Origin: Bacilli bacterium
GTDB lineage: Bacteria > Bacillota_I > Bacilli_A > RFN20 > CAG-826
Length of the DNA: 64,000 bases
NCBI GenBank assembly: GCA_041669265.1
Contig: JBAYBM010000003.1
Location: forward strand, 14,103-78,102
Direction: 5' to 3'
The notes under the pieces are model-generated. The model made no database searches, was not told the origin of the DNA, and saw nothing but the letters and a program-made list of their open reading frames with translations. Shown here in pieces: positions 1 to 42,023 of this stretch. The translations under genes were made by a program, and so were the position numbers. Each line of letters begins with the position of its first letter. Position 1 is the stretch's first letter.

Positions 1-589
1 TACTGTTCCAGCACTAATAATACAATTCTTTGAAGTCTCCAATCCTTTCATTATTATACATCTTGCACAAATCCAATTATGCTCACCAATTAATATTGGT
101 AATGTATTATTCTTTGTAGTTTCTATACCTTCTCTTAAATCAATAATAAAATGATGATCAGAATCCATAAACATAGTATCAAAACCTACAGTTGTATTGC
201 TTCCAAATGAAATACTCTTATGACATTCAATAGAAACATTTTGTGATAGATGTACATTTTTACCAAACTTCAACTCTGCACCACTATCAACAACAATAGA
301 GTCTCCTTCAGAAATAACAAAATGTTCATCAACTATAACCCCCCCCCAAATTGCAAATAACTGTTTTCATTTTTTTACCCAAATATTGTGGGTTTGTAGA
401 AAAACCAATGTGACTAAGATGGTGATGATTAATGTTATTAATTATAAAAGAACCTTTTAATTTTAATAACTTAACATTTCTAGCAATTAAAACCAATGGG
501 CGAAATAAAGTTTTTAATCCAAAATAATGAACATTAAACTTAATAGTTTTAAATAATGATATCTTTAATAATAATTTGAATCTTTTCAT
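1..589 (-). CDS. Hexapeptide-repeat (LbH) sugar O-acetyltransferase. The N-terminal reading frame (ATG at 587-589 overlapping the upstream TGA; internal Met at 368-370, MKTVICNLGGG) is out of frame with the LbH body (VIVDEHFVISEGDSIVVDSGAELKFGKNVHL...IGEHNWICARCIIMKGLETSKNCIISAGTV) because of a G9 tract. Partial at the window start; phase-variable or pseudogene
   Basis: Translating the minus strand of 1-340 in the frame after the poly-G gives typical left-handed beta-helix acetyltransferase sequence. The ORF-track 86-aa ORF 329..589 ends GGGYS* directly after the G9 run. The ATGA overlap with the upstream GT gene suggests co-translation from 589. Confidence 0.5.
339..347. repeat. Homopolymeric C9 tract (G9 on the coding strand) inside the 5' coding region of the acetyltransferase; the only C/G homopolymer longer than 5 in the window
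   Basis: Read directly: aactataaccccccccccaaattgc at 331-353. Removing one G (8 G) would fuse MKTVICNLGG to VIVDEHF... in frame. Confidence 0.9.
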
Positions 590-1776
590 AAAAATATCTC
601 CATATAAATTGATATCAACTTAGTCTCATTTGAAGTGTTGCTTTCAAAAACAAAATCATGTATTGAATCTATACTCTTTAAATACTTTAAAAGTTCGCTA
701 ATAGATGATGCTTTATATACAAATCCATTAAGGCCATCAACTATATGTTCTTTAGCAGCACAACAATCAGACACTATACAAGGAATATGAGAACTTAACA
801 TTTCAGGAACTGTTAACGGAGAAACCTCATACCATATTGATGGAAATACAAGAGCTTTTACTTTTGGTAAAATTTCTTCTATTTGATCTTTTTCTAACCA
901 CCCTAAAAACTCAATATTAGGATATTTCTTTTCTAATTCCTGTCTTTGTTCTCCATCTCCAATTACTATACCTTTATAACGACCTAATGTTATTGCTTCA
1001 CAAAAATCTACTACCCCTTTTTCTTTAGTTATTCTACCCATATACAAAAAATATTCTTTATTACTAATACCATTAGATATATATTTAAATTTATCTATTT
1101 CATTAGGATAATAATAATAATTGGCATTTGGATAATATTTTGATATAACATCCTTACTAAGTTTAGATAAATAAATAAAGTTTTCATTATCTTTTAAGTA
1201 TTTTTTTAACCTATTAGTTCTTATTACACGCCATACTTTTTGTAGATAATTTCTTTTATCACAATTACAGAATTTACATTTAACACTTAAAGCTTTATAT
1301 TTACAAATTTCATATTTCTTATAATTTAAGAACCCACCATTAGGACAACATGTAAAATAATCATGTAAAGTAATAACACGTTTAAAACCTAATTCATTAA
1401 TGGCTTTAAATATAGAACAAGATAAAGAATGGCTCCATCCTTGAATATGAATCATTGTATCTTTATTTGAAAAATCCTTTAAAAATAACTTAAGATTTTT
1501 ATAAACTTTTTTATTAAAAATTCCTGAAAAGAATGTATCTATCATTGTTCTATGATTTATATCATTAAGATTTAAACATTTAATATTTACTTTGGATTTA
1601 ATAAGTTCTTCACATATAGGACCACTACCACAATAATAAAAAACATTCAAATTATCTATTTTAGATAAACTAATAGCATTATTAATAGCAACTTTAGCAG
1701 CTCCGCCATTAATATAACCATAATCATAGATAATTATTATATTTTTTATATTATTCATAAAATTATTTGTCTCCAA
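586..1776 (-). CDS. Glycosyltransferase family 4 (GT-B fold)
   Basis: 396 aa; C-terminal E-x7-E region YEVSPLTVPEMLSSHIPCIVSD; the GRITKEKG...VIGDGEQRQELEKK pattern is typical of GT4 retaining transferases. Confidence 0.8.
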   Translation of the reverse strand: METNNFMNNIKNIIIIYDYGYINGGAAKVAINNAISLSKIDNLNVFYYCGSGPICEELIKSKVNIKCLNLNDINHRTMIDTFFSGIFNKKVYKNLKLFLKDFSNKDTMIHIQGWSHSLSCSIFKAINELGFKRVITLHDYFTCCPNGGFLNYKKYEICKYKALSVKCKFCNCDKRNYLQKVWRVIRTNRLKKYLKDNENFIYLSKLSKDVISKYYPNANYYYYPNEIDKFKYISNGISNKEYFLYMGRITKEKGVVDFCEAITLGRYKGIVIGDGEQRQELEKKYPNIEFLGWLEKDQIEEILPKVKALVFPSIWYEVSPLTVPEMLSSHIPCIVSDCCAAKEHIVDGLNGFVYKASSISELLKYLKSIDSIHDFVFESNTSNETKLISIYMEIFL

Positions 1777-2953
1777 CTACATTCATTTTGTTATAAATAC
1801 TTATAACATTTTCATTAAATTCCTTTTCAGAAAAAAGTTTTTCACTTCTTTCTTTAGCACCCTTTGATAATTTATTATATAACTCTTCATCATTTACTAA
1901 TTTCATTATATATTCACCATATTGTTTACTGTTTTTATTTTGTGCTTCTAATCCTGTTTCATTATTAATTGATACCCAATTAACTCCAGATCCTAAAATA
2001 GTAAATGTTACGGTAGGTTTTGCAAAATACATAGCTTCTGCTAAAGATATACCAAATGCTTCATTTCTTGTAATTGAAGGGAAAGTAAAAATATCACATG
2101 CTAATAAATATGAATTAATATCATCTTCACTTAATTTACCTACAAAATAAATATTATTATATTTACTAGCTTGTTTTTTAAGTTCATCTGTTAATGGACC
2201 ACTTCCACCAATAATAATATCTACTTTATCTCTATCAATATATTCATTAGATTCAATTAAATATTTAAGTCCTTTATATTCAACATGTCTTCCAAAGAAG
2301 AAACATATTTTTTTATTTTTATGTTCTTCTTTTATTTCGTTAGATTTCTTTATAATGTCTTCAGTCAATATAGTTCTTTCTTTACCAATACAAGAAGGTA
2401 ATATTTCTATATTTCCTTTATAGTATGGTAAATAATCAGTATCTTTTAAATAAGAAGGAGAAGTAGCAATAACTATATCTGCTCTATTTAACAAATCTTT
2501 ATTTTGTTTAACAAATAATTGTTTTAGTAACTTTTGTTTAATTATATCAGCATGCCAATGTAATATAAATTTTCCCTTATAATGTAATTTCTTTAAATAT
2601 TTTAAAACATAATTTGCTGCATATGGATCAGGATAATGAAAATGAATAATATCAGGATTAAAATCTACTAATATCTTCTTTAAAATCTTCCCATAATTCT
2701 TTGCTAAAGGTTGAGAAGCAACTATTTTTTGTACACCTACTCTATAAACAGTAACTCCATCAATAATTTCTTTTACATCCTTTTTAGTAGAATTAAAAGC
2801 TATTACTTCTACATCATATTTATTAGTAGATTCTAAAAAAGATGAAATATCACAACATGTAGTTTCTATTCCACCAATATAAGGGGGATATCTTTTAGAT
2901 ATTTGTAATACTTTAATCTTGTTACCCATAAAACTAAAAGAACCTTTCTTCAA
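1763..2953 (-). CDS. Glycosyltransferase family 4
   Basis: 396 aa; N-terminal KRYPPYIGGIETTCCDIS, then GRHVEYKG...IIGGSGPLTDELKK and FPSITRNEAFGISLAEAM (E-x7-E); 14-nt overlap with the downstream GT. Confidence 0.8.
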   Translation of the reverse strand: MKKGSFSFMGNKIKVLQISKRYPPYIGGIETTCCDISSFLESTNKYDVEVIAFNSTKKDVKEIIDGVTVYRVGVQKIVASQPLAKNYGKILKKILVDFNPDIIHFHYPDPYAANYVLKYLKKLHYKGKFILHWHADIIKQKLLKQLFVKQNKDLLNRADIVIATSPSYLKDTDYLPYYKGNIEILPSCIGKERTILTEDIIKKSNEIKEEHKNKKICFFFGRHVEYKGLKYLIESNEYIDRDKVDIIIGGSGPLTDELKKQASKYNNIYFVGKLSEDDINSYLLACDIFTFPSITRNEAFGISLAEAMYFAKPTVTFTILGSGVNWVSINNETGLEAQNKNSKQYGEYIMKLVNDEELYNKLSKGAKERSEKLFSEKEFNENVISIYNKMNVVGDK

Positions 2954-3584
2954 GCATTAAACATAAACAATGATATATTGGTAAATGATATTCTTGTACT
3001 ATAAAAGTTTCACTACTAGGAGCTTTAATAGTAATATCAGAAAGAGCAGATAATTTACTATCCTTTTCTCCAGTTAAACCTATTACTTTCATTCCTTTAG
3101 CTTTTGCTACTATTGCAGCATTAATAATATTTTTAGAATTTCCTGAAGTTGAAATTCCTAAAAATACATCACTCTTATTACCTAATATACTTAATTGTTG
3201 AGCAAAAGTATATAATCCACCATCTTTAACATCATTAATAAAAGCAGTATTTAATCCTTGATGTGAATCTAACGCTATAACAGGGAATCCTTTTTGTAAT
3301 TTGGTAGCTATTTCACTACCTAATTCCTTATTAGTTTTAATTAAATCTTCTTCAAATTCCTTATCAATAGGTCTTCTTTTTTTAAAGCCTTTCATTAATT
3401 CACCTACTATATGTTCACTATCACTACAAGATCCACCATTACCAGCTATTAATAATTTATTACCATTAGTAAAACAATCTACTAATATAGTAAATGCTTT
3501 ATTAATATCATCTTTACAACACTTTAAAGCAGGATATCTTTTTATAAGAGTTTCTACATTATATATAAAGTTTTCATCTTCCAT
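2934..3584 (-). CDS. gmhA: D-sedoheptulose-7-phosphate isomerase (SIS domain)
   Basis: 216 aa; LLIAGNGGSCSDSEHIVGELMKGF and GISTSGNSKNIINA SIS motifs. Confidence 0.8.
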   Translation of the reverse strand: MEDENFIYNVETLIKRYPALKCCKDDINKAFTILVDCFTNGNKLLIAGNGGSCSDSEHIVGELMKGFKKRRPIDKEFEEDLIKTNKELGSEIATKLQKGFPVIALDSHQGLNTAFINDVKDGGLYTFAQQLSILGNKSDVFLGISTSGNSKNIINAAIVAKAKGMKVIGLTGEKDSKLSALSDITIKAPSSETFIVQEYHLPIYHCLCLMLEERFF

Positions 3585-3585
3585 A

Positions 3586-4896
3586 TTAGTTATCTCCTTT
3601 TAGTATTATATCTACTGCTTCATTTAAATCTTTAGCATAATAAGTAGGTTTATTTTTACAATCTTTTTTATCACCTAAAAATATTGTATTACATCCACCA
3701 TTAATTCCACATAAAATATCATTATTACCATCTCCAATAAACCAAGATTTCTTTAAATCAATATTAAAATCATTTTGAGCTTTTATTAACATTCCAATTT
3801 TAGGTTTTCGACATTCACAATCAATTTTAAGTTCAGGTATTTCTCCTTTAAATCCTTTATCAGGATGATGTGGACAATAATATATTTTATCTAAATATGC
3901 TCCACTATTTCCAAGTAAAGTTTCCATTTTGTTATGGATATTTTTAAGTTCAGTAAAACTTACTTCACCTCGAGCTACTACTGGTTGATTAGTTACTACT
4001 ATTGCTAAATATCTACTTCTATTAATCTTCGAGATAGCTTCACTTACTCCATCAATTAAATTAAAATCATCTATATTAGTTAAGAAACCTACATATTTAT
4101 TAATAGTACCATCTCTATCTAAGAAGATAGCTCTTTGTTTATTTCTCAAACTCTTATCTTTTACTATTCCATTACTAAAATCATTAGAAACACTATTATA
4201 TCTTTCTGGAGTACCCATATCTTTAATGTATTCAGAAGATTGATAAGCATACATTTTATCCGTGTTTGCTAATGGTTTTAAAATATCTTTATCTAAATCT
4301 ACTATTGGGTTAGTAGTATTAATATTATCTAATACTAATGGAGATACTATATGTAATCCAGCATTCACTTTATTTTGATACCATGTAGGATGTATATCAT
4401 TTTTACCAATCCAAGATAATACTTCATCATCATTATTAGTAATTATGATACTGCTATCAAATGGATGAGAATTAGGATGAGTAAATAAGGTTACTAATCC
4501 TTTCTTTTCTTGATGAAATTTTACAAACTTATTTAAATCTACATCAAATATAGAATCAGCATTAATTAGTAAGAAATCTTCTTTTAATTGATCTTTAATT
4601 TTAAATAATGCTCCAGCATTACCTAATGGTTCATTTTCTTCATAGTAAGATATATGAACTCCAAAAGGTTTATTAGTAATTGGAGATACTTTACTGCCAT
4701 CTCCAAAATAATTAATTATAATATCTTTTAAATAGTTAACAGTAATAATAAGGTCAACAAAACCTTGTTCTTTTAAACAATATATTTCTCTTTCTAAAAC
4801 AGGCATACCATCAATTTGTATCATTGGTTTTGGTATATCTTTATTTATAGAAGAGATTCTAGTTCCTTTTCCTCCAGCCATTATTACTGTAATCAT
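3586..4896 (-). CDS. Bifunctional D-glycero-alpha-D-manno-heptose-1-phosphate guanylyltransferase (HddC-like nucleotidyltransferase) fused to a D,D-heptose-1,7-bisphosphate phosphatase (GmhB-like HAD)
   Basis: N-terminus MITVIMAGGKGTRISS is a sugar-phosphate nucleotidyltransferase. C-terminus AIFLDRDGTINKY...VVTNQP...YYCPHHPDKG...CECRKPKIGM...GDGNNDI is a GmhB/HisB-type HAD phosphatase with a Zn-binding Cys/His cluster. Confidence 0.7.
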   Translation of the reverse strand: MITVIMAGGKGTRISSINKDIPKPMIQIDGMPVLEREIYCLKEQGFVDLIITVNYLKDIIINYFGDGSKVSPITNKPFGVHISYYEENEPLGNAGALFKIKDQLKEDFLLINADSIFDVDLNKFVKFHQEKKGLVTLFTHPNSHPFDSSIIITNNDDEVLSWIGKNDIHPTWYQNKVNAGLHIVSPLVLDNINTTNPIVDLDKDILKPLANTDKMYAYQSSEYIKDMGTPERYNSVSNDFSNGIVKDKSLRNKQRAIFLDRDGTINKYVGFLTNIDDFNLIDGVSEAISKINRSRYLAIVVTNQPVVARGEVSFTELKNIHNKMETLLGNSGAYLDKIYYCPHHPDKGFKGEIPELKIDCECRKPKIGMLIKAQNDFNIDLKKSWFIGDGNNDILCGINGGCNTIFLGDKKDCKNKPTYYAKDLNEAVDIILKGDN

Positions 4897-4903
4897 ATTT
4901 ATA

Positions 4904-5917
4904 TTAACCTTCTACACTTGAATCGTAATCAAAGTTCTCTGGAGTATAATAAATAACTCTTGTTCCACTTCTTTCAAATTTAAAAGGAACTTCCATTAAA
5001 TTACTTAAAGCCTTTCTTACATTATCTTGCTTATCTTTAGTTACATAAAATAAGAGGAATCCACCTCCACCAGCCCCAAGAAGTTTTCCTCCTAAGGCAC
5101 CTGCTTTAATAGCTTTAGTATATAAACTATCAATTGAATCAGTAGTAATTTCACTACCTGTTTGACGTTTTAATTTCCATGTTTCATCAAGTAATCTACC
5201 AAAATCATCTAAATCAATTGTTTTATCTTCTAATACTAATTGAGCTTTATCTACTAACTCTAACATCTTATCTAATTCTTTTTTCTTTTCTTCTAATGTT
5301 GATTCAGTTGATTTTTGTATTTCAGCTGAAAATCTAGTAAATCCTGTAAAGAATAACATTAAATTATCATTTAATTGATTCTTTCTTTCAGGAGAAATAA
5401 TAATAGGATTAACATGATATCCATTGGCATCAAAATCAATTCTATTTAATCCACCAAAAGAAGCAGCTATTTGATCTTGCCATCCTCCAGCTTCATTACA
5501 TAATGTTCTTTCTAAATATATTGCATCATTTGCTAATTGTTTTTTAGATGCATATTTACCTTTTAAACAATAAAAAGCATTTAATAAACCTACAGCAAAA
5601 GTAGAAGATGTACCTAAACCTGTTCTCGCAGGTAAATCTGCATCATAAGAAATATGTAATTCTTTCATATCTAACATCTTCATAGCGTTTCTAACCATTG
5701 GATGTTCTATTTGATCTACAGCACTAACTCTTTCCATCTTAGAATATGTAATTTCAGTAGTATAATTAAAAAACCTTGGTAAATGTCTCACAGTAACATA
5801 AACATATTTATCAAATGTAGTAGAGATAACAGCACCTCTACCTTGTTTAAAATATAATGGTAAATCAGTACCACCACCAAAGAAACTCATTCTAAAAGGT
5901 GTTTTTGTAATAATCAT
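4904..5917 (-). CDS. hddA: D-glycero-alpha-D-manno-heptose 7-phosphate kinase (GHMP kinase)
   Basis: 337 aa; MIITKTPFRMSFFGGGTDLPLYF plus the GHMP motif PARTGLGTSSTFAVGLLNA. Confidence 0.75.
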   Translation of the reverse strand: MIITKTPFRMSFFGGGTDLPLYFKQGRGAVISTTFDKYVYVTVRHLPRFFNYTTEITYSKMERVSAVDQIEHPMVRNAMKMLDMKELHISYDADLPARTGLGTSSTFAVGLLNAFYCLKGKYASKKQLANDAIYLERTLCNEAGGWQDQIAASFGGLNRIDFDANGYHVNPIIISPERKNQLNDNLMLFFTGFTRFSAEIQKSTESTLEEKKKELDKMLELVDKAQLVLEDKTIDLDDFGRLLDETWKLKRQTGSEITTDSIDSLYTKAIKAGALGGKLLGAGGGGFLLFYVTKDKQDNVRKALSNLMEVPFKFERSGTRVIYYTPENFDYDSSVEG

Positions 5918-5919
5918 AT

Positions 5920-6789
5920 CTATTCCCCACTTCTATCGGTTAATACAAACCAAAAACCTTTAAATATAATCTTTAAATCTAAACCTACTGATCTAGTTTC
6001 AATATATTTAAGATCTAAATCAATCCACTCCTCAAATGTAAGTTTATTTCTATGAGGAGTAATTTGCCATAAACAAAGTAATCCTCCCTTTACATCAAGA
6101 CGATGTAATTCTTTAGGATTATAATCTTTTACTTCACTAGCTAAAGGTGGACGAGGACCTACTACAGACATATTACCAACGAATATATCCCATATTTGAG
6201 GTAGTTCATCTAAAGATGTTTTTCTTAAGAATTTTCCAAATTTAGTAATACGAGGATCATCTTTAAGTTTAAATGCAGGTGCATCTGCTTCATTAATACC
6301 ATATTTTAATAAGGTAGCTTTCATAGCTTCTGCTCCAGGACACATACTTCTTATTTTATGAAATACAAAGGTTTTACCATTCTTACCTACTCTTATACTT
6401 CTATAGATAGCACCTTTAACAGTTTTATCTTTAATACCATCTTTATCTTTACTAACTTTACAATTATATCTTTTACCATTCTTAGAAAGATATTTACCAT
6501 TACTATCTTCTACTATATCTAATTTATATGATTTAGAACCTATATCTTCTAAATATTTAATTAGCATTAAAATTAATATTAACCACCAAACAAGTAATAT
6601 TACTAAAAAAGAAGAAACTATATCAAATAGTCTCTTAAAGAATGCATAACATCTACCACCTTTAATTACTATATTTTCGTTATTTGTACTGTTAGAAAGA
6701 TTGTTACTAGTAGTATTCTTACTACTATCAGTATCACTATCTTCCTTTACAGTATTCATAACAAACATTCCTTCACTTTCTACTTTCAT
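5920..6789 (-). CDS. Initiating phosphoglycosyltransferase (bacterial sugar transferase domain, small monotopic PGT type with a ~50-aa insertion)
   Basis: RLFDIVSSFLVILLVWWLILI TM helix; GKNGKTFVFHKIRSM...KDDPRITKFGKFLRKTSLDELPQIWDIFVGNMSVVGPRP is the WbaP/PglC catalytic core. Confidence 0.75.
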   Translation of the reverse strand: MKVESEGMFVMNTVKEDSDTDSSKNTTSNNLSNSTNNENIVIKGGRCYAFFKRLFDIVSSFLVILLVWWLILILMLIKYLEDIGSKSYKLDIVEDSNGKYLSKNGKRYNCKVSKDKDGIKDKTVKGAIYRSIRVGKNGKTFVFHKIRSMCPGAEAMKATLLKYGINEADAPAFKLKDDPRITKFGKFLRKTSLDELPQIWDIFVGNMSVVGPRPPLASEVKDYNPKELHRLDVKGGLLCLWQITPHRNKLTFEEWIDLDLKYIETRSVGLDLKIIFKGFWFVLTDRSGE

Positions 6790-6818
6790 ATTTAGCCCCT
6801 CTTTCTAAATTGAAATTA

Positions 6819-7484
6819 CTATTTTATTTTAAAATTAAATAATTCATCATCTTTAAACATCTTACTAGCTTCTAACATAGTAGAACTTCTAAAACTATGT
6901 ATATCACTACTTACTACATCAATTAATTTTAATTTATGTAGTTTCTTTACTAGTCGTTTTTGTTTAAATCCATCCTTACCTACAATAGTAGAACTATTAA
7001 CTTGTATTAATGCTCCTATTGATTTTAAAGAAGTAATTAAATCAATATCCATCCATGTATAACGTTCAACATGAGCAATAATAGGTAGATAGTTATTATC
7101 AAGGAAACTATAAATTACTTCTTTAACATCTTCTATAGGTTCATGATAATTAAACTCTATTAAAACATATTTTGAGTTATTAAGTGTAAGTAATTTTCCT
7201 TCTTTTAATAGAGAAATAATATCTAATTCATTGGTATAATATATCTCTTCTCCTAAAGATAGTTTTATATTAAGTTTTAATCTATTTACTTCATTAAGTA
7301 AGAGATTATAATTTGTTAATATTTCTTCTTTAGTAGGTGTAAATTGTCTATATCTATAATGTGGTGTAAGTATTATAGTATCTACTCCATTAACAATCTC
7401 TTCTTTAATCATATTAATAGAAGTAGTTAGAGAATTAGATCCATCATCAATATTAGGAATAATATGAGTATGGATATCAATCAT
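6819..7484 (-). CDS. cpsB: PHP-family manganese-dependent protein-tyrosine phosphatase (CpsB/YwqE type)
   Basis: MIDIHTHIIPNIDDGS N-terminus; 221 aa. Confidence 0.8.
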   Translation of the reverse strand: MIDIHTHIIPNIDDGSNSLTTSINMIKEEIVNGVDTIILTPHYRYRQFTPTKEEILTNYNLLLNEVNRLKLNIKLSLGEEIYYTNELDIISLLKEGKLLTLNNSKYVLIEFNYHEPIEDVKEVIYSFLDNNYLPIIAHVERYTWMDIDLITSLKSIGALIQVNSSTIVGKDGFKQKRLVKKLHKLKLIDVVSSDIHSFRSSTMLEASKMFKDDELFNFKIK

Positions 7485-7485
7485 A

Positions 7486-8265
7486 TTACTTACTTACTTC
7501 CCTTGTAGTATTACTACTTTTTTTATTTTTAGGAGATTCATCATAATGTTTATAATAATGATCATATTGATAATAGTAAGAAGTATAATCACTATTCTTT
7601 CTAGTAACATTAGTAAATACTGCTCCTAAGACATTAACATGATTGTTCTTTAAATATTTAACAGCATCTATACTACTCTTACGATCACTGAATATTTGTG
7701 AAACTACAAATATACAACTATCACTAAATCTAGATACTATTAATGCATCACTTACTACGAGTATTGGTGGGCAATCAATAAAGATATAATCATATTTGTC
7801 TCTTAATACTTTCATTAAATCTTTTAATTTAGTAGAATTTAACATCTTTAATGGATATGGTACTTTACTACCACTATTAATAAAATCTATATTCTTATTT
7901 TTAGAATGTTTAATAAGAGTAGATAAAGGTAAATCATTACCTAAATAATCTGTTAATCCATCTTTATTAACTGCTTTAAAAGCATGATGTATTTCAGGTC
8001 TACGTAAATCCATATCTATTATTAATACTTTCTTATCATCTTCAGCAAAGGTAACTGCAATATTTAATAATGTTAATGTTTTACCTTCTCCTTGATTAGA
8101 AGAAGTAATTTGTATAACTTTATTAATATTATCTACACTTGAAAATTCAATACCTACTTTAATTCTTCTATAAGCTTCACTTATATGAGAAGAAGGATCA
8201 AGTAGCGTAATAACATCATGATTAGGATTAGCTTTTTCTTGTTGAATAGCTTTAGCTTTATTCAT
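7486..8265 (-). CDS. cpsD: BY-kinase, cytoplasmic tyrosine autokinase (CpsD/YwqD type) with a C-terminal Tyr cluster
   Basis: Walker A ITSSNQGEGKTLTLLNIA, Walker B VLIIDMDLRRP, C-terminal YTSYYYQYDHYY. Confidence 0.8.
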   Translation of the reverse strand: MNKAKAIQQEKANPNHDVITLLDPSSHISEAYRRIKVGIEFSSVDNINKVIQITSSNQGEGKTLTLLNIAVTFAEDDKKVLIIDMDLRRPEIHHAFKAVNKDGLTDYLGNDLPLSTLIKHSKNKNIDFINSGSKVPYPLKMLNSTKLKDLMKVLRDKYDYIFIDCPPILVVSDALIVSRFSDSCIFVVSQIFSDRKSSIDAVKYLKNNHVNVLGAVFTNVTRKNSDYTSYYYQYDHYYKHYDESPKNKKSSNTTREVSK

Positions 8266-8267
8266 AA

Positions 8268-9125
8268 TTATTTGTTCTCCTTTTTATTTTTAGTATCAAT
8301 ATCATAGAAAGGAATAACTCCAAGTACTGAAATACCTAAAGCTTTTTCTACTTCATCACTAGATTTAAATTTAGTATTAGTAGCTTCTCTAATACAGGTA
8401 TAAATAATAGCAAGTACTACTCCTATTGCTAAACCAATACCAATATTACGTAAAGTATGAGATACTTCTACTCCTACTTTAGCATCACTTAATATTGCTA
8501 TATTATCATATAGTAATTTATATTTAGGAGAATCATCTTCATTTTTTCGATTTGCAATTTCTACTGCTTTTTTAGCTACTAAATTAGCAACAAATTTAGT
8601 TTCATTTTTATCGGTCGAAGTATAAGATACACTAACTACTAGGGTAGCATCTACTAGGGATACTCCTAAATTTTTACTTAATTCTTTTTCATCTATTTCA
8701 TAATTAGAATCTTTATCTATTAAAGATAATACTTCATCTAAAACTACATCTTGTTTTATAAAAGCAACATAGGTTTTAGAAATATAAGAAGAATATTGAT
8801 AATCACTTACTGTAGAAGAATCTCCTGTACTTGTAGATGATTCAGGAGAAACAATTAATGTCGCATCAGAAGAATAAGTATTTGGTTCTACTAAATTATA
8901 AATTTCTCCTCCTACTCCACCTACTATTATAAATAATAAAATAGCTAATAAATGTTTCCTTAAAATAAAAAGAATGTCTTTAAAACTTAGACCTTCTTTT
9001 TCATTATCATCATCACTATTATTGTGGGTAGTTAAAATATCTGTATCACTAGATACAGGTTTATTTACTTCGTTTAAGTTATCCTTTTTGTTCTTTGTAT
9101 TCATATTAACCCCTTTTGTATTCAA
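8268..9125 (-). CDS. cpsC: Polysaccharide co-polymerase / chain-length regulator (CpsC/YwqC/Wzz type); two TM helices
   Basis: N-terminal TM LLAILLFIIVGGVGG, C-terminal TM IGIGLAIGVVLAIIY; partners the downstream kinase. Confidence 0.75.
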   Translation of the reverse strand: MNTKGVNMNTKNKKDNLNEVNKPVSSDTDILTTHNNSDDDNEKEGLSFKDILFILRKHLLAILLFIIVGGVGGEIYNLVEPNTYSSDATLIVSPESSTSTGDSSTVSDYQYSSYISKTYVAFIKQDVVLDEVLSLIDKDSNYEIDEKELSKNLGVSLVDATLVVSVSYTSTDKNETKFVANLVAKKAVEIANRKNEDDSPKYKLLYDNIAILSDAKVGVEVSHTLRNIGIGLAIGVVLAIIYTCIREATNTKFKSSDEVEKALGISVLGVIPFYDIDTKNKKENK

Positions 9126-9216
9126 TTAATTTTACCTTTATTAATTATATATTACAACCATAAAAATTAACTAATAAAGTTGATGTCTTAATATTTTACT
9201 TAAAATTTTAAAAAAG

Positions 9217-9990
9217 TTATTTTTTGTCTCCATAATAACGTTTCTTATAAGAATAATAGTTATAATCATGAGAATAATTACTATTTTTCTTAGTAACATT
9301 AGTAAAGACTACTCCTAAGATAGGAACATCATTATCTTTTAAATATTTCATTGCTAATATAGCATCATTCTTATTACAAAACATTTGGGATACTATAAAT
9401 AATGCTGCATCAGCATAAGTAGCAATAATTAAAGCATCACTAACTGCTAATATTGGTGGACAATCAAGTAAAATATAATCATATTGATCTCTAAATGAAT
9501 CTATTAATTTTTTAATAGATGGATCATCAAGTACTGTTAAAGGATAAGGTACTTTACTACCTCTAACAATATAATCTATATATGGAGATGAAGAATGTTT
9601 TACTAATTTAGATAATGGTATATCACCTACTAAATAATCATCTAATCCATTCTCATTTTTACTTTTAAAAGCATGATGGATTTTAGGTCTACGTAAATCC
9701 ATATCTATTATTAATACTTTCTTCTTATCTTCAATAAATGTAGCAGCTAAATTAAGTAGAGTAATAGTTTTACCATCATTTTGATTTGGTGAAGTAACCT
9801 CTATTACTTGTACTTTACGGTTTATGCTAGAAAATTTAATCCCAACCTTAATACGTCTATAACATTCACTAATACTTCCATTAGGATTTTGTAAGGTAAT
9901 AATGTTATAGTCTTTATTTTTATGCTCTCTTTTTAAAATGCTTTTTCTATTCATCGACTTTACCCCCAACATCCTCATCTTTAACATCAT
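9217..9990 (-). CDS. Second BY-kinase paralog (CpsD type); the real start is probably internal (MNRKSILK...)
   Basis: Walker A VTSPNQNDGKTITLLNLA, VLIIDMDLRRP, C-terminal YSHDYNYYSYKKRYY; clear paralog of 7486..8265. Confidence 0.75.
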   Translation of the reverse strand: MMLKMRMLGVKSMNRKSILKREHKNKDYNIITLQNPNGSISECYRRIKVGIKFSSINRKVQVIEVTSPNQNDGKTITLLNLAATFIEDKKKVLIIDMDLRRPKIHHAFKSKNENGLDDYLVGDIPLSKLVKHSSSPYIDYIVRGSKVPYPLTVLDDPSIKKLIDSFRDQYDYILLDCPPILAVSDALIIATYADAALFIVSQMFCNKNDAILAMKYLKDNDVPILGVVFTNVTKKNSNYSHDYNYYSYKKRYYGDKK

Positions 9991-10549
9991 CTATATCATA
10001 AAAGGGGATAACGCCAATAACGGAAGCACCAAGAATACTTTCAACTTCTTCTGGGGATTTAAATTTAGTATTCAATGCTTCTCTAACGCATACATATATG
10101 ATAGCAATTACAAAGCCAATTGCAAATCCAATACCTATATTTCTAACAGTATGAGATACTTTTTTACCTTCTTTAGCTTCACTTAAAACTGCTATATTAT
10201 CATATAGTAATTTATATTTAGGTTCTTTATTAGTAGTAGTAGCATTTGCTACTTCTACTACTTTATTTACCAAAATATTTACAATATATTGAGCTTCTTT
10301 AGAATCAGTACTCGTATAACCTACACTAATAACTAAAGAAGAATTAACTAAGGTTGCACTTATATGATTTCTTAAGATATCACTAGTAAGTTCTAATCCT
10401 TTAGCTTCATTAATAGTATTACTTACTTCATCTAAAACTACATCTTCACTAATAAAAGTAACATAGGTTTTAGAAATATAAGAAGAATATTGATAATCAT
10501 CTACACTAGTAGAATCACCTACTAAAGTTTCATCAGGAGACACAATCAT
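9947..10549 (-). CDS. Second CpsC/Wzz paralog, N-terminally truncated: the first TM segment is missing. The open frame continues upstream to ~10630 without any ATG/GTG/TTG
   Basis: MIVSPDETLVGDSTSVDDYQYSSYISKTYV aligns with residues ~85 onward of 8268..9125. Hand translation upstream gives ...SCKVNVKFSPKNIFLEVKNYEATATM with no start codon and a TAA at ~10628-10630. Confidence 0.5.
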   Translation of the reverse strand: MIVSPDETLVGDSTSVDDYQYSSYISKTYVTFISEDVVLDEVSNTINEAKGLELTSDILRNHISATLVNSSLVISVGYTSTDSKEAQYIVNILVNKVVEVANATTTNKEPKYKLLYDNIAVLSEAKEGKKVSHTVRNIGIGFAIGFVIAIIYVCVREALNTKFKSPEEVESILGASVIGVIPFYDIDDVKDEDVGGKVDE

Positions 10550-12005: not shown

Positions 12006-12027
12006 ATTTATCTACCTCCATTTATAA

Positions 12028-12126
12028 TTTACACCTTTTTCAAGGGAGTTTTCAATATACTTTACACCTTTTTCAAGGGAGTTTTTTATATACTTTACAC
12101 CTTTTTCAAGGGACTTTTGTTATTAT
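12028..12126. repeat. Three tandem copies of a ~33-bp direct repeat (TTTACACCTTTTTCAAGGGAGTTTTYWATATAC), immediately upstream of the ATPase gene
   Basis: Read directly at 12028-12060, 12061-12093 and 12094-12126; the third copy is slightly diverged. Confidence 0.85.
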
Positions 12127-13378: not shown

Positions 13379-14329
13379 TTACTTTTGATAAAGTTTTAAA
13401 GAATTTATTTCAAAATGAGAATATTTATATACATTAGAATTACCAGTGGTATCTTTTTTAAAGTAAGATGCTCCAGTTACTACTTCTCCACTAGTAGGAG
13501 TACTTTCACTATAAAAAGTACCATCTAAATTAGAGAATTCTATACTAATAAAATATATTTGTTTTATTCCTGTAGCAAAGGTAGTAGATATTAATTCAGT
13601 ATTTGTATCATCATATAATATCTCTCCTGTAGTAGATCCATCTACTACTGTACCCTTATTATCAGTAGTATTAGTTTTAGTATCAGTATCTAATTTATCA
13701 GTATAATTAATAACGCCAGTTCCTGTTCTACCACTACTAGGATAAGTAACAAAATCATTAGCTACTACAGTACTTGTAGTAGTTGTATCACTAGTGTCAT
13801 AACTAGTAACATATAAATTTATAGCATCACTTAATTCTACTCTACGAGTAGTAACAGTATCATCATTACCACTAAGAACATAATTTAAATTAGTAGTAAT
13901 ATTATCAAAATAATTAGAGAAAGAAGCTAAAGATAAAGCTACATCTATATCATTAAAAGTAGTAGTTACTTCTAAAGCAAAAGTATATCTTGCTCCTGGT
14001 ACCATATTTGATAAATCTGTATGAGTATTACTAGCACTTAAAAAATCTGTATCATAATCAGTTACTGTTTTAATATTAGTAGAATTTTCTTCATATTGCC
14101 CTGGTTCAATATAACCATGATATTCATTACTACTATTATAATTATTTTTATAATATTTTAAGTTATAGGTAATTTCATTAGAGGTAGCAATAATATTACT
14201 TACTGTAACACTAGCTTTATTAGTAGAAGTAAACCAAGCATAGGTAGAACTTATAGTAGCTAAAAAAACAAAGCCTATTTGAACTAAAGCTAATGCAATA
14301 ATTTTAGATTGTTTTTTAACGCTCTTCAT
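13379..14329 (-). CDS. Secreted T/S/N/D-rich protein with a TasA/camelysin-like (SipW-cognate class) signal peptide
   Basis: N-terminus KIIALALVQIGFVFLATISSTYAWFTSTNKASV resembles the TasA-type leader (hydrophobic core then T-Y-A-x-F-T-D/S); good SD AGGAGGAT upstream. Confidence 0.5.
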   Translation of the reverse strand: MKSVKKQSKIIALALVQIGFVFLATISSTYAWFTSTNKASVTVSNIIATSNEITYNLKYYKNNYNSSNEYHGYIEPGQYEENSTNIKTVTDYDTDFLSASNTHTDLSNMVPGARYTFALEVTTTFNDIDVALSLASFSNYFDNITTNLNYVLSGNDDTVTTRRVELSDAINLYVTSYDTSDTTTTSTVVANDFVTYPSSGRTGTGVINYTDKLDTDTKTNTTDNKGTVVDGSTTGEILYDDTNTELISTTFATGIKQIYFISIEFSNLDGTFYSESTPTSGEVVTGASYFKKDTTGNSNVYKYSHFEINSLKLYQK

Positions 14330-14640
14330 ATAGATCCTCCTATAAAATAAAAATACCAGCAGCTAAAATTTCTTTTAGGCAACTGGCAACCAATACATAT
14401 TTATATAGGCCCTATAGCTTTGCGTCACTAAGTTTCCCTAGTTTTGCTTGTAGTTATTATATTACGAAAGTATTTCGCAAACAAGTAAAATTTTATGTAA
14501 TCGATTTCGTGAATTGTGTTGTATACATCGTATCTTTTAAAGATTATTTTTATATAGAAAATTCAAACTAAATTATGTAGTTTTTATCAATGAAATTTCT
14601 ATTTTTAATACTAAAAAGTAATATAAAACCACACCAAATA

Positions 14641-14707: not shown

Positions 14708-17700
14708 TTATATTGTCCAGAAAGCAGGTAAATTATTAGTGTCATAATACCAATATCTTCTACTTTCAAGTAAGGTATCACTTGGTTTAGTAGCTGAATA
14801 ATATGCTGTTGCTTTAGCCCCGCTATTCCAAGAAGTAGTCCAAGCATGGGTACCACCTTCTTTATGCATATTATAAAATGTATCATAACTTTCAGAGACA
14901 TATATATAAGCATTAGAAGCGGCAAATGAATTAGCGTTTACTGTTAAATTAGTAGTGTCACTAGGAAGAATAAATCCTGTTAAAGAAGTACATCCACTAA
15001 ATGCACTATCACCTATATAAAGGATGCTACCTGTTTTATCAGTATTTGTAGCAAAATTAACTATAGTAGCATTATCTACTACGCTACCAGTATTCTCATC
15101 ATTAGCATATCTAGTTTTCATATTAGTAATACCACTACAACCACTAAATATAGAATTACCTAAATATTTAATAGTAGATGGTAAAGTTATAGTAGCTAAA
15201 TTAACACATGGATTGAATGCCCATCCATACATACTTTCTAGTCCATAATTTAAATCTAAGGAAGTTAAAGCAGTATCTCCTTTAAGCATATCCATACCTG
15301 TTATGTCACAAGTAGAAATAGTTTTTAAAGTAGTTAAAGTACGAGGTACACACATTAAGACTTGTCCATTACCTCCAGCTGTAACGTTTCTAGCAGCATT
15401 AATATAGAAACAACTATTATAAGAAGATAAATAAGTACCTACTACTTCATCAGTATTAGATATAGTACCTAAAGAATACCCATTACAACCACTAACATTA
15501 TAAAAGACATTTAAACGAGCATTTGGTGAGTTATCTGGAGTAGTAGTTGCTTTATATCCACTTGGGAAATATATATCTACTGTAGTAGGTAATACTACAT
15601 ATGTTAACTTAGTTCCCATACATCCATTTTGCCCTATATAACCTAAAGAAGTAGGAAATACATAATTATTATTATAAGTAGTACCACTATACCCTACTAC
15701 TTGAGCTAAATTATTACATGCATATAGTCCAGCATAACCGATAGTTACTATAGTATTTGGTAACTCTAATTTATTCATATAAGAATTACCTGCAAAAGCA
15801 CCTTGACCAATTTCAGTAACATTGAAGGTTCCTTCATCTACTGTTTCAGTAGCATTAACTTTTAATGTTTTATTTGAATAGGTAGTACTTTTAATATATC
15901 CAGTAATAGTAATATGAGCGGTAGTAGGTTCATGAGTAGTTCCAGAGACATGTCCTCCTGTATCATAACTATCTACCGTACCGCTATCATAAATATAATA
16001 ATATCCTTGATCAGTATTAGAGTGGATATTAGTTTCTGCACCAATGCCAAAATATATACCATTAACATCAGCGTTAAATCCTGCATTATTATAACCAGTA
16101 CCATTACCTTCAGCACTAGTAGATAATTTATAATTTGTGGCACTATAATTAGTTTTAGTACCTTCTAAATAGATTGATAATTTACTACCGATAGCAATAT
16201 TAGAATTTACCTTTTTAATTCTTAAAGGAATATATAAATATGGAAGTTTGGTACAATAAGAAAATACATTATTATATAATTCATTAATCCAATTACCCCA
16301 ATTTATAGTAGTTAAATTAGAACAACTACTAAAACAACTATCACCAATATTAGTTAATGAACTTGTAGGTGATAAAGCATCTGGAGCAGTAACAAAAGTT
16401 AAAGTTGTAATAAACTTACAATTATTAAAAGCTTGATTACCAATATGAGTAGTATAAGTAGAACTAGATGTATCTAATAATGAATAAGGTATTTTAAGTT
16501 CAAATCCATCAGCATTAGTGGCTCCATTACCATCATTAATCTTAAAAGCACCTTCAGCTATTGTAGTTAAACTACATGTTCCATCTTCAGCTCCAGCAAA
16601 ATATAATTCTTTTAAAGCATATAAGTTATTAAAAGCCCATTTACTTATTGTAGTAACGCTAGAAGGTATCGTTAAAGTAGTTACTTTTTTATTATTATAG
16701 AAAGCAGTTTCTCCAATAGTAAGTAAACCTTCATTTAAGGTTATAGCAGTCATATTTGTACAACCACTAAAAGCATCTTTTTCAATAAATGTTAAATCAG
16801 TATTAGTAGTAATAGAAGTTATATTAGTATTATTATAGAATGCTTTTTCATATATACCTTGTACTACATATCCTCCTAAAGTATTAGGAATAGTAACTGC
16901 TCCACCATTTCCATTATACCCATAGATATATGAATAAGTAGTATCTCCATCATTTTTAGACATATATAAACAACTATTTTCAATACCAATATCAACGTAT
17001 CCATAATCAATTTGAATATAAATATTAGAATCAGTAGCACTACCTGTAGAATTACCTATTCTATTCCAATCAGTAGTATATGTATCAGGCACTGCATCAT
17101 CTTGCATATATATAGTAGCGGATTTAATACCTCTAAAAGCCCATTTTTCAACAGTAGTTACACTACTTGGAAGATGGATAAGGTTTACACTAGTACAATT
17201 AAAGAAAGCATTTTCTCTTATTATTTTAGTAGTAATAGGCATTAATAATCTATTTAGATATTTACAATAAGCAAAAGCACTTGCTCCTACTTCAATTAAA
17301 CCAGTAGGAAGAGCAAAAAAGTTTTTAGCATCTGCAGCATATATTAAAGTAGTACATCCACTAAAAGCATGATCCCAAATTTTAGTATATGTAGCATCAG
17401 TTTCGTAATATAAATATGTTAAATTAGAGCAATTCTCAAATGTTCCAGGAAATATTTGATTCTTATCATTAGTATAATCACTGTCAGAATCTACTACTAA
17501 TTTTGGTAATATAAAAGTTACCATTTTATTATTATTAGCGAATGCTTGTTTACCTATAGTAGTTAAATAATCAGGCCAGTCTGAAATATTAGTTATATCT
17601 GCACCATTAAAACCATTATTAGCAATCGAAGTAATTGTATAAGTTGTACCATTACTAACATAATAATTAGGTAAGTCTATATATCCATTAGTAGCATTAT

Positions 17701-17983
17701 CTAAAGATGTACCTTTAGCGACCGCACAAGTTCCATCGCTAGCAGTTATATATTCTAAGCCTTCAGTATAAGTATCACCTGTATAGTCATTATTATATCT
17801 AGATACTCCATATTTAGTGAATTTACGATTAGGATCACCATCTTTAGATACTTTATCAAGTTCTTCCATAGTTTCATCGGTATCAGTATTTATATTATTG
17901 TTACAAGAACTTGTTAAAGATACTATACCTAATATAGTTAATATACATAAGAATCTTTTTAAGTTAATATTAAATAATTTCAT
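14708..17983 (-). CDS. Large surface lipoprotein with BspA-type leucine-rich repeats (LRR_5-like)
   Basis: Lipobox-like ILGIVSLTSSC. Many repeats of the IP..V..I...AF..C..L form, e.g. TIPNTLGGYVVQGIYEKAFYNNTNITSITTN...IEKDAFSGCTNMTAITLNEGLLTIGETAFYNNKKVTTLTIPSSVTTISKWAF; 1091 aa. Confidence 0.7.
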   Translation of the reverse strand: MKLFNINLKRFLCILTILGIVSLTSSCNNNINTDTDETMEELDKVSKDGDPNRKFTKYGVSRYNNDYTGDTYTEGLEYITASDGTCAVAKGTSLDNATNGYIDLPNYYVSNGTTYTITSIANNGFNGADITNISDWPDYLTTIGKQAFANNNKMVTFILPKLVVDSDSDYTNDKNQIFPGTFENCSNLTYLYYETDATYTKIWDHAFSGCTTLIYAADAKNFFALPTGLIEVGASAFAYCKYLNRLLMPITTKIIRENAFFNCTSVNLIHLPSSVTTVEKWAFRGIKSATIYMQDDAVPDTYTTDWNRIGNSTGSATDSNIYIQIDYGYVDIGIENSCLYMSKNDGDTTYSYIYGYNGNGGAVTIPNTLGGYVVQGIYEKAFYNNTNITSITTNTDLTFIEKDAFSGCTNMTAITLNEGLLTIGETAFYNNKKVTTLTIPSSVTTISKWAFNNLYALKELYFAGAEDGTCSLTTIAEGAFKINDGNGATNADGFELKIPYSLLDTSSSTYTTHIGNQAFNNCKFITTLTFVTAPDALSPTSSLTNIGDSCFSSCSNLTTINWGNWINELYNNVFSYCTKLPYLYIPLRIKKVNSNIAIGSKLSIYLEGTKTNYSATNYKLSTSAEGNGTGYNNAGFNADVNGIYFGIGAETNIHSNTDQGYYYIYDSGTVDSYDTGGHVSGTTHEPTTAHITITGYIKSTTYSNKTLKVNATETVDEGTFNVTEIGQGAFAGNSYMNKLELPNTIVTIGYAGLYACNNLAQVVGYSGTTYNNNYVFPTSLGYIGQNGCMGTKLTYVVLPTTVDIYFPSGYKATTTPDNSPNARLNVFYNVSGCNGYSLGTISNTDEVVGTYLSSYNSCFYINAARNVTAGGNGQVLMCVPRTLTTLKTISTCDITGMDMLKGDTALTSLDLNYGLESMYGWAFNPCVNLATITLPSTIKYLGNSIFSGCSGITNMKTRYANDENTGSVVDNATIVNFATNTDKTGSILYIGDSAFSGCTSLTGFILPSDTTNLTVNANSFAASNAYIYVSESYDTFYNMHKEGGTHAWTTSWNSGAKATAYYSATKPSDTLLESRRYWYYDTNNLPAFWTI

Positions 17984-41700: not shown

Positions 41701-41903
41701 TATCTATATAAAAGTCAACAAAATATATCAAAAAAGACAATTTTTTTTCGAACTTTTTTCTTAATAACATAACTTTTCCTCTAAAAATACTTCAAAAAAA
41801 TTGAAAAAAAGTCATTTTTTCTGCCCATAAAAACAACCCACTAAAAACCATAGAAAAATGTTGGCATAAAAATATCCATTTTATGACCTGATTCTATTCA
41901 AAA

Positions 41904-42023
41904 GTTTTCGGATTACATTACGAAAACTTCCTATTTTCATGTAGTTTTCGGATTACATTACGAAAACTTCCTATTTTCATGTAGTTTTCGGATTCTATTA
42001 CGAAAACTTTTCATAAAGGTCGA
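41904..42023. repeat. Three tandem copies of a 40-bp unit, each made of a 26-bp palindrome (AGTTTTCG-GATTACATTA-CGAAAACT) plus an identical 14-bp linker (TCCTATTTTCATGT); the third copy is degenerate
   Basis: Read directly at 41904, 41944 and 41984; lies between the S10-operon promoter region and the plus-strand aminotransferase gene. Confidence 0.85.

Follow-up and report, generated by a model that had tools for sequence, protein, structure and literature searches.

A nine-guanine tract as candidate phase-variation site in a putative capsule O-acetyltransferase gene of an uncultured Bacilli bacterium

The window analysed here is a 64,000-nt (64-kb) stretch of contig JBAYBM010000003.1 from an uncultured Bacilli bacterium, and the element in question is a run of nine guanines (G9) inside the gene of a putative hexapeptide-repeat (LbH) O-acetyltransferase of a capsule locus. 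The locus occupies positions 1-10549 of the window on the minus strand and continues past the window start. On the window side it encodes two CpsC/Wzz-CpsD tyrosine-kinase pairs, a CpsB phosphatase, a priming sugar transferase, a GHMP (heptose) kinase, a nucleotidyltransferase-HAD phosphatase fusion, a GmhA-like SIS isomerase, two GT4 enzymes and the acetyltransferase. The duplicated CpsCD module heads the locus (7486-10549, minus strand) and consists of a CpsC-like gene (9947-10549) paired with a kinase gene (9217-9990), and of a Wzz-like gene (8268-9125) paired with a gene for an AAA_31 ATPase (7486-8265), all on the minus strand. A GT4-family glycosyltransferase gene (586-1758, minus strand; 390 aa as called in public assemblies) lies directly upstream of the acetyltransferase gene and is translationally coupled to it. 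The continuation of the locus was read from contig L001, a Logan assembly of SRR6485349 that matches the window at 100% identity over 3192 bp. Beyond the acetyltransferase this contig carries genes for a Wzy polymerase, a glycosyltransferase, an unknown protein, a Wzx-type flippase and a nucleotidyltransferase. The acetyltransferase, described in a preliminary description of this DNA as the last gene of the locus, is thus followed by five further genes and lies in the middle of it. By its gene content, the locus is predicted to be a Gram-positive-type (CpsBCD, Wzx/Wzy) capsule locus with a heptose nucleotide-sugar pathway.

The tract is formed by nine consecutive C on the plus strand at 339-347, which is G9 on the coding minus strand and corresponds to nucleotides 243-251 of the acetyltransferase gene (codons 81-84), the predicted point of the frameshift. 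The preliminary description had reported this C9 run as single, and a whole-window scan confirmed it as the one G/C run longer than 5, the other five G/C runs being exactly 5 long. The G+C content of the window is 28.5%, and dinucleotide-preserving shuffles produced a mean of only 0.01 such runs per window, with a run appearing in 1 of 100 shuffles. In length and position, G9 corresponds to the mutable tract expected of a contingency locus, namely a G/C homopolymer of about seven or more nucleotides within an open reading frame (ORF) or promoter. No other repeat of contingency type was found in the window: A/T runs were ordinary, with lengths up to 8, and Tandem Repeats Finder returned no switch-like repeat in coding 5' regions.

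The start of the acetyltransferase gene was assigned to the ATG at 589-587, which is preceded by GGAG 9-12 nt upstream and overlaps, as ATGA, with the stop codon of the preceding glycosyltransferase gene. With nine G, translation from this start yields an 86-aa ORF (329-589, minus strand) composed of the N-terminal acetyltransferase domain, the residues GYS and the stop codon TGA at 331-329. The upstream frame ends in ...MKTVICNLGGGYS (also written ...GKKMKTVICNLGGGYS), directly before this stop. The LbH (hexapeptide) body of the enzyme, which begins at the tract and runs off the window start (1-339, minus strand), reads VIVDEHFVISEGDS...IGEHNWICARCIIMKG... in the frame gained by loss of one G or addition of two, that is, the frame of G8 or G11. 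It is also given as VIVDEHFVISEGDSIVVDSGAELKFGKNVHL...IGEHNWICARCIIMKG... in the same frame, and contains the DSDHH motif with the catalytic histidine. The window covers the first 196 of the 221 codons, and the last 25 were supplied by contig L001. When the gene was rebuilt in silico with 5 to 13 G, full-length products of 220, 221 and 222 aa were obtained with G5, G8 and G11, respectively, and truncated products of 84-87 aa with G6, G7, G9, G10, G12 and G13. Gain or loss of single units would then toggle between full-length and truncated product as in known contingency loci, and the earlier assignment of OFF to nine G and ON to 8 or 11 G held in this reconstruction.

Other parts of the earlier gene model were revised. 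The proposed start at ATG 370-368 is an internal methionine, Met74 (368-370, minus strand), whose surroundings (GKKMKT) recur in the interior of the closest homologue (P0008; YGKKMKTTFF). The OFF product has accordingly 86 residues instead of the 13 that this start implied, and the 73 residues that precede Met74 can be aligned with the N-terminal parts of intact proteins of the family. Genetic code 4, in which TGA encodes tryptophan, was considered since the nearest metagenome-assembled genomes (MAGs) are labelled Mollicutes/Tenericutes. It was rejected as a rescue of the reading frame: reading through the TGA would carry the upstream frame only about 17 codons further, to a TAG, and under table 11 the ORFs of the window are long and uninterrupted. 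Expression of the downstream half alone was judged unlikely; its first in-frame starts (TTG at LKFGKN and ATG at MFMDSD) would delete the first coils of the helix, and gene callers disagree on where this half begins.

A HMMER search with the beta-helix part against 1.84 billion representative proteins retrieved 3745 relatives at E<=1e-3, among which only the window's own fragment was more than 50% identical and the next best was about 40% identical. Many of these relatives have 215-226 aa, with the helix starting from about residue 85-95. Alignment of the G8-corrected protein with 25 intact family members (alignment A1) revealed that the 86-aa ORF matches their N-terminal domains, from residue 1 to about residue 85, and that the window protein retains every one of the family-invariant residues D142, D144, H146, W172, K181 and G182. 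In the same alignment, no second frameshift or stop was detected in the rest of the gene. In addition, the NCBIfam WcaF-family match (query residues 61-195) crosses the tract junction. Public databases hold the two halves as separate entries, a "hypothetical protein" of 86 aa (MFA6755258.1) and an "acyltransferase" of 116 aa (MFA6755257.1), both from a "Bacilli bacterium" MAG. Taken together, the alignments indicate that the two halves are parts of one ancestral gene, so that these MAG entries are to be read as halves of a single acetyltransferase gene.

The closest relative, P0008, is an intact protein of 223 aa with 46% identity. Its gene holds the equivalent position in a heptose capsule locus, after genes for GmhA, a nucleotidyltransferase-phosphatase fusion and three glycosyltransferases, and before those for the polymerase and the flippase. 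At the tract, the G8 form of the window protein (NLGGVIVD) aligns without gaps with P0008 (NDGTIFID), and the first glycine encoded by the tract (G82) is strongly conserved in A1 and invariant in a further alignment (A3). The P0008 gene reads AAT GAT GGA ACT at this site and has no tract, and since the closest homologue lacks it, the tract is lineage-specific.

The preliminary description had placed the tract in an LbH O-acetyltransferase and had proposed comparison of the corrected protein with WcaF/Maa-type enzymes. That anatomy was borne out, and the family was assigned by alignment and profile matches. The best family-level NCBIfam matches were WbbJ (8.5e-8), the WcaF family (1.1e-7) and LacA (4e-6), and a phmmer search of the PDB gave SACOL2570/LacA (1.1e-5 to 1.3e-5) and Maa (1.5e-4). 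H146, within DSDHH, aligns with the histidine of the TATHP motif of SACOL2570/LacA and is invariant in A1 and A3. The window protein thus shows significant similarity to characterised members across the beta-helix and shares with WcaF, WbbJ, LacA and Maa the polysaccharide-locus context, but its scores are below curated cut-offs: 18.4 bits against a cut-off of 27 for Pfam Hexapep, and far below the cut-off for all NCBIfam matches, such as 31.7 against 192 for the WcaF family. As judged from these profiles, the protein belongs to the LbH O-acetyltransferase superfamily but corresponds to no named equivalog, and it is best placed in a subfamily of its own, for the most part unannotated, whose N-terminal domain spans about 85-95 aa.

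Codon usage, calculated from the 56 long ORFs of the window, further set the tract apart. GGG accounts for 3.4% of the glycine codons and TTG for 2.6% of the leucine codons, and none of the 101 Gly-Gly pairs in window genes is encoded by GGG GGG. From these frequencies, the probability that L-G-G would be written as TTG GGG GGG is about 3e-5. Codon usage, the shuffles and the tract-free closest homologue all point to a tract beyond what the protein sequence or the base composition would produce. Three adjacent synonymous positions that have apparently moved against the compositional bias form the pattern classically associated with a tract that is retained because it mutates readily.

Among the relatives, protein clusters were found that hold both intact and split products diverging exactly at a glycine run. 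They represent four homologous acetyltransferases with poly-G length polymorphism between assemblies, three of which were checked in DNA and one deduced from proteins. The first (P0019/P0156) is a protein of 216 aa, 33% identical to the window protein. Its gene reads ACC GGG GGG GGA (G8, intact) in two ENA assemblies and has G9 in a third, where it is split into products of 89 and 147 aa; the split copy differs from one of the intact copies at one other position in 656 nt. The second (P0164) is a protein of 315 aa from a Gram-negative bacterium of 58% GC, encoded next to BamA and Skp, in which the gene is intact with G9 in two assemblies and split with G8 in three. The third cluster (P0056/P0166; 229 aa) is from a CpsBCD-type locus of a Firmicute with about 40% GC, and its tract is located at nt 465 of the gene. 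A search with the CpsB of this organism returned metagenome proteins and distant MAGs labelled "Clostridia bacterium". Here, G9 is the intact form (33 index blocks), and G10 (50 blocks), G8 (13 contigs) and G7 (one product) were also recorded. The contigs (L029-L046) come from many unrelated sequencing runs of gut or other metagenomes, and differ at 0-1 other positions over about 680 nt. Low-coverage contigs could carry homopolymer miscalls, but three discrete lengths, each present in many assemblies at 5-30x coverage, cannot be explained by error, and this cluster is a clear natural ON/OFF polymorphism. The fourth, from the cultured Negativicutes species Mitsuokella multacida, was seen at the protein level only: products of 235 (P0141/P0185), 205 (P0182) and 213 aa (P0188) diverge right after LGG(G), a pattern in keeping with a gain (+1) and a loss (-1) within a G run. 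In window-protein numbering, the tracts of the relatives map to about residues 87-89, 94-95, 150 and 190, and that of the window itself to 81-83 (A3). Lying at five different protein positions, the tracts arose independently.

Further tracts were observed in the loci of two of these relatives. In the P0056 locus, an upstream DUF6625 gene contains two G7/G8 tracts about 49 nt apart at its 5' end (4091-4147 in L029, 4092-4147 in L032 and 93-147 in L045). Their length differs between assemblies, and the gene is annotated as one ORF of 361 aa or as two of 43 and 329 aa, which makes it a second candidate phase-variable gene of that capsule locus. The P0164 locus has two more tracts of G9-G10 (9728-9737 and 11886-11894 in L024; 9732-9741 and 11905-11914 in L027). 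Near 11.9 kb the two samples differ, one having G9 and the other G10, and this tract lies in or beside a PglD-like hexapeptide acetyltransferase gene that was called in the G10 sample only.

The best-supported reading of these data, which we consider moderately probable, is that the gene encodes a slipped-strand phase-variable capsule O-acetyltransferase that is currently OFF. The evidence that places it ahead is that the two halves derive from one ancestral gene, that the tract is written in avoided codons, that the closest orthologue is tract-free and that the tracts of four homologues are polymorphic. In the mechanism proposed, G9 would be a mutable site for replication slippage in a WcaF/WbbJ/LacA-like hexapeptide-repeat O-acetyltransferase. 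At G9, translation from ATG 589 would stop after 86 residues, ahead of the catalytic beta-helix, leaving the enzyme OFF. Loss of one G (to G8, the form that aligns without gaps with the closest homologue) or gain of two (to G11) would fuse the N-terminal domain to the helix in an enzyme of 221 or 222 aa. Gain and loss of G at replication would generate ON and OFF subpopulations that differ in capsule O-acetylation, and altered O-acetylation would be expected to change recognition by phages and other capsule-binding agents. We infer for this mechanism that the tract varies in the population, that ON cells exist, that the capsule repeat unit is the substrate and that the switch is of benefit.

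Several results weigh against phase variation at this locus, among them the uniform length of the tract. All assemblies inspected or deduced from their products have G9, namely the window, L001, L002 (ENA ERZ27247361, a 120-kb MEGAHIT contig whose flanks are identical to the window and L001), and the NCBI MAG and JGI products. Exact look-up among about 15 billion proteins found the 86-aa product on five contigs (9.9, 116, 120, 174 and 241 kb) from NCBI, JGI, ENA and Logan, and no product for G5, G6, G7, G8, G10, G11 or G12; the G8 product from the shorter start was likewise absent. Exact pattern matching of the DNA, with the G run left variable in length, gave no hit in JGI metagenome contigs. 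One JGI contig is from sample 3300028602, a composite leachate collected in 2017 at a municipal landfill in Southern Ontario. The JGI landfill contig L004 (3300028602, Ga0265294_10166909), which carries the upstream glycosyltransferase gene, ends at the equivalent of window position 547, about 200 nt before the tract; this end is probably a low-coverage break and uninformative on the tract. The assemblies are 100% identical in their flanks and may well share reads or stem from sister samples, and they may represent one or a few samples of one site. G9 is the consensus, probably not a miscall, and minority lengths are invisible in assemblies. The assemblies say little on population heterogeneity, yet they provide no positive evidence of it either. 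Moreover, no orthologue above 50% identity was available on which to check conservation of the tract, and enzyme activity and substrate are assigned through homology that falls below curated family cut-offs. Most of the clusters of relatives had been picked for GGG in the protein, so the four positives give no unbiased rate. Searches for related loci with the corrected protein in genome and metagenome contigs found no relatives, and a homologue search with the frame-corrected protein returned no match, a weak negative in that the window's own fragments were missed too.

The comparison of tract lengths proposed in the preliminary description, made here on assemblies, thus gave G9 throughout beside a tract-free closest orthologue. 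Its phase-variation reading stands as the best supported, and the length heterogeneity expected at this tract was absent from the assemblies. With regard to what defines a contingency locus, the features that can be read from sequence (tract, frame toggle and non-random composition) are all present, whereas length polymorphism within or between populations was not found at this locus, where assemblies contain only G9.

These uniform assemblies, with no ON product on record, would also be expected of a fixed pseudogene, in which a single +1 slippage in a prior G8 run created an OFF allele that swept, the gene is being lost and no meaningful switching occurs. Capsule O-acetyltransferases are often inactivated by ordinary mutations elsewhere, as in the pneumococcal wciG and wciX variants (PMC5028725). 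We nevertheless regard such a pseudogene as rather unlikely. The remaining 220 codons contain no other stop or frameshift in a region of 25% GC that is prone to stops, and the invariant residues are kept. The tract itself requires three adjacent disfavoured codons, and G9 is mutable, so that reversion to G8 would be expected at an appreciable rate unless further damage builds up; in the homologues, ON and OFF alleles both circulate. The same uniformity could also have arisen if the true tract were G8 and the extra G a propagated homopolymer miscall. Long G homopolymers are error-prone on short-read platforms, and every one of the assemblies (Logan, ENA, JGI and NCBI) may go back to a single landfill project, through identical or sister read sets. 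Against this, G9 is found in at least five contigs (9.9-241 kb) from different pipelines, and the length of these contigs implies good coverage, which makes a consensus miscall unlikely. Assembly error, an alternative raised in the preliminary description, is for these reasons considered very improbable.

A different account of G9 as the sole allele seen is that it is functional as it stands. RNA-polymerase slippage or +1 ribosomal frameshifting on G GGG GGG G would then provide a fixed low level of the enzyme, with no heritable states. The shift needed is indeed +1, or an mRNA shorter by one nucleotide, and the run is slippery, with Gly-tRNA able to re-pair perfectly on it. Known bacterial transcriptional slippage occurs mostly on A/T runs. 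A stimulatory element was not found here: the shift site is not directly flanked by a stop or rare codon, RNA structure not having been looked for. Furthermore, the homologues include tract alleles that are in frame and others that are out of frame, in keeping with switching at the DNA level. Recoding was consequently rated the least probable of the explanations weighed, with slipped-strand phase variation retained as the preferred one.

A capsule O-acetyltransferase with slipped-strand ON/OFF switching has already been described in the class Bacilli, and the novelty claimed for it in the preliminary description was overstated. In Streptococcus pneumoniae, a (TA)n repeat near nt 413 of wciZ underlies reversible 15B/15C serotype switching with mixed populations (PMC5028725). 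The wciZ system resembles the present one in that a capsule O-acetyltransferase of a Wzx/Wzy cps locus in class Bacilli has a simple repeat inside its coding region, and differs in having a dinucleotide rather than a G homopolymer and in belonging to a cultured human pathogen in which switching was shown experimentally. WciZ is, besides, an integral-membrane enzyme of the Acyl_transf_3 type and not an LbH protein. Closer in fold is NeuO of Escherichia coli K1, an LbH capsule O-acetyltransferase that is phase-variable through a repeat in its 5' coding region (PMC13001214; PMC3090145). NeuO shares both the enzyme class and the placement of a simple repeat in the 5' coding region with the window gene. 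Its heptanucleotide repeats also encode a variable N-terminal extension, the gene is prophage-borne (phage CUS-3) and its substrate is polysialic acid, whereas here the repeat is a homopolymer in a chromosomal cps locus for a heptose-type glycan. The structure of the polysialic acid O-acetyltransferase (3jqy) was a weak match to the window protein (E = 0.003). Frameshift ON/OFF switching through tracts of some 8-11 G or C, or through short repeats, is also known from glycan-modifying genes of bacteria that are low in GC or adapted to a host, namely in the capsule and lipooligosaccharide loci of Campylobacter jejuni and in glycan O-acetyltransferase genes of Neisseria and Haemophilus (such as oatC, pglI and oafA), and the capsule loci of C. 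jejuni carry heptose pathway genes as well. Those bacteria are Gram-negative pathogens with many tracts per genome, in contrast to the one tract in about 70 kb of an uncultured environmental member of the Bacilli. The mechanism is therefore textbook and has a precedent in Bacilli; what stands out is the setting in an uncultured environmental Firmicute and the independent recruitment of poly-G within the subfamily by several lineages.

If the tract does switch, uncultured small-genome Bacilli of landfill leachate would share with Campylobacter, Neisseria, E. coli K1 and the pneumococcus a bet-hedging device that varies capsule O-acetylation. Homopolymer contingency loci would then extend to environmental Firmicutes, with pressure from phages or predators rather than host immunity as the selective agent. 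More broadly, it is possible, if not quite probable, that this little-annotated subfamily of capsule LbH O-acetyltransferases has gained poly-G tracts repeatedly and independently, at no fewer than five codon positions, in several lineages of uncultured anaerobes in which ON and OFF alleles co-circulate. The lineages concerned would be the RFN20-like Bacilli, a Clostridia-like gut bacterium of about 40% GC, Mitsuokella (Negativicutes) and the Gram-negative bacterium of 58% GC. Homopolymer contingency loci for capsule O-acetylation would in that case be widespread beyond the classical mucosal pathogens, even in landfill, a habitat without a host in which selection by phages would be the likely driver, and would be discoverable directly from split/intact ORF pairs in metagenome protein catalogues. 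The polymorphic relatives already suggest a cheap mining route for phase-variable genes through pairs of intact and split products within protein clusters.

With regard to the host, its RpoA is at most 68% identical to that of any GTDB species representative. The best RpoA matches are uncultured MAGs labelled "Bacilli", "Bacillales" and "Mollicutes", together with Candidatus Onthovivens merdipullorum (65%), whose genus is placed in Bacilli by NCBI. The window shows a strong strand asymmetry, with 52 of the 56 ORFs of at least 120 aa on the minus strand and C exceeding G by 45% on the plus strand, and TGA is used as a stop codon, albeit rarely (2 of the 56 ORFs). Outside the capsule locus, a cyclic di-GMP-I (c-di-GMP-I) riboswitch was identified at 14375-14458 on the minus strand, with 61.7 bits where the gathering score is 35. 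It closely precedes a 316-aa ORF (13379-14329) that had no NCBIfam family match. Two intergenic tandem repeats are located at 12023-12118 (33 bp x 2.9, 93% match) and 41903-42009 (40 bp x 2.7, 97% match). The window also encodes two large surface-type proteins on the minus strand: one of 1091 aa (14708-17983), which resembles an LRR-adhesin (HupY/LrrG) and Gli349 weakly, at scores below the cut-off, and a Kelch-repeat protein of 780 aa (23560-25902), whose gene contains 147-bp tandem repeats at 24813-25365.

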